In this document: in pieces, positions 20,132-21,993 of the stretch
Layout of the letters: every line of letters starts with the position of its first letter
Position numbering within the stretch: position 1 is the stretch's first letter
Source: Escherichia coli
GTDB taxonomy: Bacteria; Pseudomonadota; Gammaproteobacteria; Enterobacterales; Enterobacteriaceae
Assembly (NCBI RefSeq): GCF_003790525.1
Contig: NZ_CP033635.1
Length of the DNA: 64,000 bases
Reading direction: 5' to 3' (one strand)
Translations under genes and position numbers: made by a program
The notes under the pieces: generated by a model
What the model was told of the DNA's origin: nothing
Seen by the model: the letters and a program-made list of their open reading frames with translations, nothing else
The model's database searches: none

Positions 20132-20776
20132 TCAACGAACCGTCCATGCCGGGCTGAAATTCTCTTCCTGAAACAGCTCTGTCAGCCCGCTAATCTGTTT
20201 GAGCCTCAGCACTTCATCCTGATCCATGCCCAACTCTGTGCCAATACGCTCATCTGTCCAGCCCAGACGCGAAAGGTCCCTGACAATGTCAGACATTGAC
20301 GTTATCTGGTGTTTTCCCCTGGCACGGTTATGCCGTATGGTCGCGGCAATACGTGATGCCTATCCCTTTCTCTCTGGATTAATACAGGCCACTGGCAGCC
20401 AGCCCTTCAGACGTTTTCTCGTATCCGCTTTCCTGCCCAGCAACTGACGATGAAAACCATCCACTACCAGATAATGCTCCTTCTCTTCCGAAACCACCAC
20501 AGGCTGCGTGAATCCATCCTGCTCCAGTGAATGTTTAAGCAGTTTTTTTTCACTGGAAGACATGACATTGGGATTGTAATCGTTGGCCACCACCTCATTC
20601 GCTTTCACCCACAACACACAGTCCACAGGCTCCTGTGCAAAAGGGCTGACCTCATGCAACACCCTGCGCAGATGATTAAGGGCTCGTATGGTCTCTTCTT
20701 CAGATCGTTCCTGACTGAAGTACTGTCGAATCATGTTGCTCAATACTTCCACCTCAGGTGTCACAGAATCCCCCAT
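20132..20776 (-). pseudogene. ParB-like nuclease-domain protein (IbrB/YbdM family) with an in-frame TAG at 20360-20362
   Basis: ORF 20360..20776 (138 aa) continues in the same frame through the stop into a further ~75 codons (…MSDIVRDLSRLGWTDERIGTELGMDQDEV…). Confidence 0.65.
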
Positions 20777-21993
20777 TCCTTCCTCCTTTCTTTCATACGC
20801 TGCAGATAACGTTCATAGTGCCGGGGTTTGTTCGGACTGAAGGAGAGGGTCCGACACCAGAAATCATTCTTTATGAGTGTCTTACAGATACGTCGCCAGG
20901 ACGGGATATCCCGGCTCCCCAGGTCATTCTCCTGTTCATCCGGGATGTCATCCGGGAAGCCCCGCGTCTGATACCAGCGCAGGTAGACAGCAATTTTATT
21001 ACGGTAATGTTCTGCCGTTCTTTCCGGCATCACATCCAGCAGGAACATCGCATAGCTACGCCAGGTATGATGAGGTGGCTTCGTGATACGCTTACGCAGG
21101 GCAAAATAGGCACCGCTCTCATTGGCATAAAGCGCCCCGCTGGCAGCACCCGACACCCGCTCACACATCCTGGCCCAGGTTTCCGGCTCCAGAACATGGT
21201 AAAGCCACAGTCCCTTACGCTGTTCCGGGCCAAAAGGCTCACAGACCCGCATGTTGCGTAACGGCACGCCGGCACGGTACATCAGGTCATACAGGGGATT
21301 GTAGATAGCTCGGGTTCTGGCGTTATATATCCATATATCACGAGCTTTCCAGTCATACAACGGATACAAGGTGTAATAAAACCCTTCAGGTGACGCTGTG
21401 GTCCAGGGTTTATCATCTGCATATCTCAGTTTGCGCTGAGACACCAGTCCCACAAAGCGATTGAGCGATTCATCAGCACGAACACCAGTCAGTATTGCCA
21501 CTCCACACCGGTTACCGGCAAACCAGGAAGAAAATGCCGGAACAAATTCTTCAAACGTCATGGCATACCGATAAAATGGGAAGTACGACATATCTGTAAT
21601 AGCGTCATCTGGTGGCTGACGAACCCACTCCACACCTGGTTCCCAGCATATCCATTCCGGCTGAAACTGAGAGACACCGTTTACCGTAGTCAGGGGGAGT
21701 GCCACCCAGTAAAAAGTCTCCGTCACATCCCGATACATCTCCCTCATCTTCAGAATGTGTGCAATTGTGCACTGGTACTGAGCTTCCCAGTCAATGAATA
21801 ATACAGAGAAACGACGTTTCTTCCTGCGAGCCACATCGGCCGTAAGATGGAGCAGCACAGTAGAGTCTTTTCCTCCGGAAAAAGACAAACAGACAGAAGA
21901 AAATGTCTCAAACAACCACTCAATACGGTGAACGGCCGCACACAGGACATCCTCACCCGTCAGGATTTTTTTCGCGGAAAAATCATTGTTCAT
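20761..21993 (-). CDS. PAPS-reductase-like (PP-loop) protein, IbrA/YbdN family
   Basis: 410 aa ORF with SFSGGKDS PP-loop motif; overlaps the ParB-like gene by a few codons. Confidence 0.75.
   Translation of the reverse strand: MNNDFSAKKILTGEDVLCAAVHRIEWLFETFSSVCLSFSGGKDSTVLLHLTADVARRKKRRFSVLFIDWEAQYQCTIAHILKMREMYRDVTETFYWVALPLTTVNGVSQFQPEWICWEPGVEWVRQPPDDAITDMSYFPFYRYAMTFEEFVPAFSSWFAGNRCGVAILTGVRADESLNRFVGLVSQRKLRYADDKPWTTASPEGFYYTLYPLYDWKARDIWIYNARTRAIYNPLYDLMYRAGVPLRNMRVCEPFGPEQRKGLWLYHVLEPETWARMCERVSGAASGALYANESGAYFALRKRITKPPHHTWRSYAMFLLDVMPERTAEHYRNKIAVYLRWYQTRGFPDDIPDEQENDLGSRDIPSWRRICKTLIKNDFWCRTLSFSPNKPRHYERYLQRMKERRKEWGIL

Follow-up and report, generated by a model that had tools for sequence, protein, structure and literature searches.

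The ibrA-ibrB gene pair and its interrupted ibrB gene

We analyzed a 64,000-nucleotide stretch of Escherichia coli DNA (NCBI RefSeq assembly GCF_003790525.1, contig NZ_CP033635.1; hereafter the window) that carries, on its minus strand, two overlapping genes resembling ibrA and ibrB. The larger gene, ibrA, is intact and the smaller, ibrB, contains an in-frame TAG codon (Table 1). A preliminary description made from the sequence letters had reported the overlapping pair, a TAG at 20360-20362 and an open frame of about 75 codons beyond it, and its coordinates were exact: the ibrB frame comprises 138 sense codons, the TAG, 75 further sense codons and a terminal TGA at 20132-20134, and the truncated open reading frame (ORF) from ATG to TAG spans 20360-20776. 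The two genes share 16 nucleotides (20761-20776), and an AGGAGG Shine-Dalgarno sequence (20782-20787) is located 5 nucleotides before the ibrB ATG. The predicted 410-residue IbrA protein begins MNNDFSAKKIL. No second copy of the pair was found within the window, and a promoter and terminator scan of positions 19800-23400 revealed nothing bearing on the pair above shuffled expectation.

The preliminary description had also assigned the pair to the IbrB/IbrA (YbdM/YbdN) family, and domain content, overlapping gene order and the RefSeq name all supported this assignment. Pfam analysis of IbrA gave two separate matches to PF01507 (PAPS_reduct; 8.6e-07 and 2e-06) and one to PF11922 (DUF3440; 8.3e-25), and the protein matched PHROG 2302 (6e-83) and 15645 (7e-138). 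IbrB contains a ParB_N domain and a helix-turn-helix (HTH) domain; Pfam detected ParB_N at residues 57-111 with an E-value of only 0.0043, and the intact IbrB allele matched phrog_2159 over residues 1-213 (2.3e-87). The PAPS_reduct and DUF3440 partner is co-oriented with, adjacent to and overlapping ibrB, as in the IbrA/IbrB module. Over positions 20000-22100 the window has no differences (100% identity) from E. coli SMS-3-5 (NC_010498.1), and the same holds for at least 20 further complete genomes. The pseudogene status of ibrB is already recorded in public annotation: in SMS-3-5, RefSeq lists the small gene as an 'IbrB-like domain-containing protein' pseudogene with an internal stop, and the large gene as an intact 'phosphoadenosine phosphosulfate reductase' (WP_001058035.1).

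Table 1. Coordinates of the ibrA-ibrB pair and its parts in the window
Feature	Position	Strand	Basis or content
ibrA-like gene, intact, 410 amino acids	20761..21993	-	ATG-start ORF; PP-loop (SGGKDS) PAPS-reductase-fold domain and DUF3440
ibrB-like pseudogene, 214 codons, one in-frame TAG	20132..20776	-	Translation; RefSeq
Premature stop TAG, codon 139, ancestral CAG (Gln)	20360..20362	-	DNA alignment
Translatable N-terminal remnant, 138 amino acids	20363..20776	-	Helical hairpin and ParB/Srx N-domain core, DGFHR (residues 106-110)
Untranslated C-terminal 75 codons	20135..20359	-	Helix 139-152 with the RIAATIRHNRARG motif, HTH helices 161-195, tail
Gene junction	20761..20787	-	ibrA 3' end/ibrB start overlap and AGGAGG site inside ibrA

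A single-base change at codon 139 shared by 60 genome records

The alleles compared with the window were those of ECamp083 (99.5% DNA identity), Nissle 1917, O55:H7 CB9615 and 042, together with K-12 ybdM. The substitution affects window position 20362, which is A on the plus strand and G in the intact alleles, and corresponds to nucleotide 415 of ibrB (Q139*). Codon 139 is CAG in the DNA alignment for ECamp083, Nissle 1917 and 042 and encodes Q in the O55:H7 CB9615 protein; K-12 YbdM has a gap at this alignment column. Relative to ECamp083, ibrB showed 3 nucleotide differences, namely D60N, Q139* and one synonymous change, and IbrA showed a single residue change (S3N), ECamp083 being the nearest ibrA allele with an intact ibrB. 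The conceptual translation of IbrB was 99% identical to intact 214-residue alleles. Beyond the TAG, the frame shares 99-100% identity with the intact homologues over their C-terminal third and carries the most conserved residues of the family, and thus its openness is not due to chance. Because only three differences separate ibrB from its closest intact allele, and the intact alleles carry CAG, this comparison indicates that the lesion arose by one recent C>T transition and that the gene has not decayed any further since.

A search of 5,426 complete E. coli genomes with the exact 61-mer centred on the TAG identified 60 records, from humans, poultry and chickens, dogs, pigs, a pangolin and river water. 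A further 218 records differed from the 61-mer by one or two bases, and those inspected carried CAG. A sequencing or assembly error, with CAG as the true codon and the gene intact, would account for a difference of one base from the intact alleles. However, the identical TAG 61-mer in 60 independently sequenced complete genomes from many hosts shows that the stop is not the error of one assembly, and the change is a substitution rather than a homopolymer indel; we consider that the error reading can practically be dismissed. On the genome comparison, the TAG mutation is fixed in the lineage.

We also considered the possibility that the amber codon is read through, by a supE-type suppressor tRNA or by programmed read-through, and that full-length IbrB is still made. 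The glnV (supE) amber suppressor inserts Gln, which is the ancestral residue at codon 139 and the one such a suppressor would restore, and the frame downstream of the TAG is still undamaged. In contrast, the glnX-glnV cluster of SMS-3-5, the sole locus of that genome scanned, contains four tRNA-Gln genes with the anticodons CTG, CTG, TTG and TTG, and no CTA anticodon was identified there or in the window. A recent mutation would account just as well for the undamaged downstream frame, given the three differences from the nearest allele. Read-through is therefore highly improbable in our assessment.

The truncation is predicted to remove the HTH domain of IbrB

Full-length homologues ending at codon 139 were looked for among close and distant relatives, and none was found. 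Relatives from close to distant were approximately 200-215 residues long. The 120 best clusters from a search of 5.8 billion proteins were mostly 211-214 residues, with a few shorter or partial entries of 182-208 residues, and in an exhaustive search of 50%-clustering representatives (1,857 matches) the non-fragment matches reached query residue ~205-214. Analysis of a 57-sequence alignment (34-56% identity to IbrB) revealed that N150 and G154 are invariant and that A152, R153, G183, E188, R191, G197 and W211 are near-invariant, all of them beyond codon 139; 2 of the 10 invariant and 8 of the 15 near-invariant columns lie past the stop. A natural short isoform was rejected on the basis of these homologue lengths and the conservation after the stop. 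By full-length similarity the gene belongs to the IbrB family (~200-215 residues, a ParB N-domain followed by an HTH), and its frame for the RHNRARG helix and the HTH is interrupted by the TAG at codon 139. Thus, ibrB is an IbrB-family member by descent, yet a pseudogene, and the earlier proposal that the ParB-like gene is inactivated next to an intact partner agrees with the CAG-to-TAG change, the full-length homologues and the single residue separating ibrA from its nearest allele. Neither of the two observations that the preliminary description had named as contradicting it was made.

An AlphaFold2 model of IbrB, built with the 57-sequence alignment as input, had a mean predicted local distance difference test score (pLDDT) of 92 and a predicted template modelling score (pTM) of 0.84. 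In the model, residues 7-43 form an N-terminal helical hairpin and residues 54-131 a mixed alpha/beta domain, followed by five C-terminal helices (139-152, 161-170, 175-182, 186-195 and 198-202). Codon 139, the site of the stop, is precisely where helix 139-152 begins, so that all five C-terminal helices are lost. Foldseek comparison with the PDB placed Noc (7nfu), ParB-CDP (6sdk, 7bnk), KorB (8qa9) and Spo0J (1vz0) at the top ranks; the matches to Noc, ParB and KorB had a probability of 1.00, extended over 150-170 columns and covered the N-terminal nucleotide-binding and HTH domains. Sulfiredoxin and serine kinase SbnI-like proteins matched the N-domain of the model only. Profile alignment placed IbrB residues ~46-113 (...QPVVV...VVDGFHR) on boxes I and II of Spo0J and Noc (E 5.6e-07 to 2.9e-06). 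A sequence search of solved structures found none in the IbrB family and detected HpSpo0J at E = 0.0024 only.

The N-domain fold and its box I/II core place IbrB in the ParB/Srx structural superfamily; sulfiredoxin, like Noc, ParB and KorB, matched at a probability of 1.00. Of the 'ParB nuclease' label in the preliminary description, the fold relationship stands and the activity is a name only, since the structure predicted for IbrB most resembles the N-domain of the CTP-binding ParB/Noc/KorB proteins with an HTH. From spacing and pattern, rather than a residue-level alignment, we infer that the RIAATIRHNRARG helix (RHNRARG) is equivalent to ParB box III (...ENxQRE...) and completes the nucleotide pocket. 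According to the model the whole HTH domain is lost by truncation, whether or not this box III equivalence holds.

A different explanation is that the interrupted gene is a functional split or neofunctionalized allele, in which the 138-residue N-domain, possibly together with a 54-residue peptide restarted at M161 (ATG at 20294-20296), works with IbrA and is kept by selection. The ParB N-domain core with DGFHR precedes the stop, stand-alone ParB/Srx N-domains exist, ibrA is intact, and the allele has spread over 60 genomes from many hosts. However, such a spread is expected of any neutral mutation in a clonal lineage, and helix 139-152 with the invariant N150 and G154 is missing from both putative pieces. 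In addition, no Shine-Dalgarno sequence precedes the ATG of M161, diverse relatives match through the full-length architecture unless they are obvious fragments, and the neighbouring receptor gene is broken too. We regard a split allele as quite improbable.

IbrA is related to PP-loop enzymes and lacks a conserved cysteine

The motifs of IbrA were compared with those of homologues in Streptococcus, Flavobacterium and Mycobacterium phages that share 27-38% identity with it. FSGGKDS, G170-x-R172-x-x-E175-S176-x-x-R179 and P211-x-x-D214-W215 were invariant from E. coli to the phage homologues. No cysteine was invariant, and C251, at a CysH-like position, was replaced by A or S in the phage homologues. 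Scores against the curated CysH, CysD and PAPS-reductase models fell far below the cut-offs (29.4 against 254.2 for TIGR02057, 25.3 against 165.1 for TIGR00434 and 32.3 against 154 for PRK02090). IbrA was accordingly rejected as an assimilatory PAPS or adenosine phosphosulfate reductase (CysH). Because these scores fell so far short and the cysteine is not conserved, the 'PAPS reductase' name used in the preliminary description holds as a fold label and not as an activity, and the most fitting description of IbrA from its sequence is that of a PP-loop ATP-pyrophosphatase-type enzyme. No solved structure in the IbrA family was found by sequence; FAD synthase and CysD were detected at the PP-loop only.

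A further explanation considered was a phosphorothioation defence module of the Dnd, Ssp or BREX type 4 kind, in which IbrA would correspond to DndC or BrxP, IbrB would correspond to DndB, and loss of ibrB would de-repress modification. PADLOC gave IbrA weak matches to BrxP (7.8e-06, residues 29-98 only) and to DndC (0.0013). DndB is a ParB-superfamily protein and a proposed negative regulator (PMC12839542), and phage PAPS reductases have been linked to Dnd evasion (bioRxiv 10.64898/2026.07.27.740549). However, the PADLOC matches are confined to the generic PP-loop region and no PADLOC model matched IbrB, no dndA, dndD, dndE, ssp, brx or pglZ genes were identified within 12 kb on either side, and the IbrA cysteines are not conserved, so that a DndC-like Fe-S or cysteine-dyad signature is absent. 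The pair does not belong to the Dnd, Ssp or BREX type 4 systems on these data, and we give this explanation only a slim chance.

The gene pair is conserved in phages

IbrA-family (PHROG 2302/15645) and IbrB-family (PHROG 2159) genes were found adjacent to each other in phages of four bacterial phyla. The pair overlaps and follows antirepressor genes in Escherichia phage PhiR5_2, and overlaps and follows a helicase gene in Streptococcus phage PY1. In Mycobacterium phage Marley1013 (segment 1-2717) the overlapping pair, gp4-gp5, directly precedes the terminase gene gp6, and gp1 is a second ParB-like gene. In Flavobacterium phage FCV-1.01 (segment 1938-3607) the gene order is reversed and the pair is located between a helicase and a portal gene. 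The conservation of this pairing across phages argues that IbrA and IbrB act together, and it also suggests that the chromosomal E. coli ibrAB copies descend from phage-like elements. We also observed that the Marley1013 pair is at the genome end and that phage pairs adjoin packaging genes (terminase or portal).

Genomic context of the pair

In the window, the pair is flanked by a TonB-dependent receptor gene and by fragments of colibactin genes, and cobUST and three tRNA-Asn genes adjoin. The receptor gene (17615-19761, plus strand) is frameshifted by the loss of one A from a run of eight (A8>A7, 18496-18502); Nissle 1917 and ECamp083 have A8. A 95-nucleotide query containing the A7 allele had exact matches in 129 complete-genome records, more than the 60 genomes with the TAG in ibrB, and RIVM_C037794 and WP2-W18-ESBL-10 are among the A7 strains whose ibrB has CAG. 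The presence of CAG strains in the A7 set suggests that the receptor was broken first and ibrB later. Recurrent slippage or phase variation may also occur at this homopolymer. The pattern fits an islet that is decaying in steps.

Directly upstream of ibrA, at ~21995-22957 on the minus strand, are the 5' end of a clbQ-like thioesterase gene (21995-22117), a ClbP piece (22164-22334), a hypothetical protein and a galactonate-dehydratase piece. The clb fragments look like the scar of colibactin (pks) island genes by the asn-tRNA hot spot, the island itself being absent at this site. Homology of ibrA to Nissle 1917 ends at 21940, within the first 18 codons of the gene (21940-21993, minus strand), and the upstream DNA is unrelated. 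The IbrA N-terminus is MNNDFSAKKILTGEDVLCAAV in the window lineage compared with MG-TIQKIRTDVNVLHAAI in Nissle 1917. This break in homology, the differing N-termini and the unrelated upstream DNA indicate that recombination has exchanged the 5' end of ibrA together with its promoter region. A reciprocal loss was identified in O55:H7 CB9615 (retrieved segment 3361-5639), where ibrA is cut by the insertion sequence ISEc31, leaving a DUF3440 fragment, and ibrB is intact.

The three tRNA-Asn(GTT) genes, at 8206-8281 (minus strand), 10030-10105 (plus) and 12439-12514 (plus), fall within a 4.3-kb stretch, are interleaved with yeeO, cbl and nac, and match the SMS-3-5 map. This stretch is the hot spot at which elements classically integrate next to asn-tRNA genes in E. 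coli. Positions ~23421-34000 contain argH (argininosuccinate lyase), at least three anaerobic C4-dicarboxylate transporter genes, a GntR-family regulator gene, dcuR, ansB and an aspartate ammonia-lyase gene, a cluster that looks like an islet for aspartate, asparagine and C4-dicarboxylate utilization.

Interpretation

Taken together, we are highly confident that the locus is a chromosomal IbrA/IbrB-type module in a decaying islet, in which ibrB is a recent, lineage-fixed C>T amber pseudogene and ibrA is intact. A single C>T transition converted Gln139 (CAG) of ibrB to an amber codon, so that translation would end after 138 residues. The truncated product would keep the N-terminal hairpin and the ParB/Srx N-domain core and would lose helix 139-152 (RHNRARG) and the HTH. 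The structural model suggests that intact IbrB is a ParB/Noc/KorB-like, nucleotide-switched DNA-binding protein, and IbrA is probably a PP-loop ATP-pyrophosphatase-fold enzyme in which the catalytic cysteine conserved in true PAPS reductases is missing. Translation of the two genes appears to be coupled, and their products probably form a complex acting on DNA. This complex could have a regulatory role, an option suggested by the published genetic effect of IbrAB on the expression of prophage eib, or it could modify nucleic acid. Without the HTH, the complex would no longer be targeted to DNA, and the module is most likely non-functional in this lineage.

Three considerations weigh against this interpretation. 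The 138-residue fragment may retain residual activity, since it keeps the DGFHR core and ParB/Srx proteins that consist of the N-terminal domain only (sulfiredoxin, PadC) exist. The mechanistic model of the intact module draws on fold resemblance and one genetic study. The substitutions that have accumulated since the mutation are too few to show relaxed selection on ibrA or ibrB. A selected change of function, in which the 138-residue fragment is still a partner or regulator of IbrA and is uncoupled from DNA, appears very unlikely; if true, it would explain the intact ibrA in a globally spread lineage.

The amber pseudogene is an ordinary recent one and matters little alone. Because reciprocal natural knock-outs exist (the ibrB nonsense allele and the O55:H7 ibrA gene cut by an insertion sequence), neither ibrA nor ibrB seems lethal, toxic or harmful without its partner, which argues that IbrAB is not an addiction-type pair of the toxin-antitoxin or restriction-modification-like kind. 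The TAG-ibrB/intact-ibrA allele in 60 genomes, the alleles with both genes intact and the O55:H7 allele with intact ibrB and truncated ibrA form a natural, near-isogenic series, which provides useful tools for the biochemistry of the widespread, phage-associated IbrAB/YbdNM family. A literature search identified no mechanistic study of IbrA/IbrB or YbdN/YbdM, its matches being dominated by retina 'iBRB' papers.

Comparison with known systems

The predicted IbrB fold resembles the N-terminal CTPase and HTH domains of ParB, Noc and KorB (7nfu, 6sdk and 8qa9), with TM-scores up to 0.51. IbrB differs from these proteins in its 13-20% sequence identity, in a box II of DGFHR and not GERRxR, in an additional N-terminal helical hairpin, and in the absence of a C-terminal dimerisation domain and of a parA partner. 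Membership in the ParABS ParB/Noc group was rejected, as the TIGR04285 (Noc) score was 22.7 compared with a cut-off of 315 bits, no parA was identified nearby and the protein ends ~20 residues past the HTH. IbrA shares the PP-loop SGGKDS and the G-x-R-x-x-E-S...R and P-x-x-D-W motifs with CysH, DndC, SspD and BrxP; it differs by its additional DUF3440, its sub-cut-off scores and the lack of sulfur-relay or Dnd/BREX partner genes nearby.

K-12 YbdN/YbdM (b0602/b0601) shares the domain pair, gene order and overlap with IbrA/IbrB. Alignment with the window pair gave 60% identity for YbdN and 57% for YbdM, with almost no differences in the block RIAATIRHNRARG...DEVLRLKQI. Intact ybdN and ybdM genes are also present in SMS-3-5 itself at the K-12 position, in the ybdL-citR interval (retrieved segment 9602-11424). 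At these identities, and with separate intact copies in SMS-3-5, YbdN/YbdM are paralogues of the window pair and not orthologues. These intact SMS-3-5 paralogues could mask a phenotype of ibrB loss.

IbrA and IbrB, the 'immunoglobulin-binding regulator' proteins, were reportedly described by Sandt, Hopper and Hill in 2002 (J Bacteriol 184:3640) from the IbrAB island of E. coli ECOR-9. The window pair resembles them in having a PAPS_reduct and DUF3440 gene that overlaps a ParB-like gene of ~214 residues, the latter bearing the RefSeq name 'IbrB-like', and differs in the nonsense mutation of ibrB. The one statement on function that the literature search yielded is that Eib expression is enhanced when ibrB is present (Sandt et al. 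2002, cited by PMC7649339). The IbrA/IbrB-type pair of E. coli 042 is 88-89% identical to the window pair at the DNA level and 93% and 91% identical at the protein level, and Escherichia phage PhiR5_2 carries a pair annotated as IbrA/IbrB that shares 83% DNA identity with the window pair. The 042 pair adjoins perC-family genes, as in Shiga toxin-producing E. coli (PMC7649339); in contrast, the window pair is located between a TonB-dependent receptor gene near cobUST and clb remnants and not on a perC-linked island.

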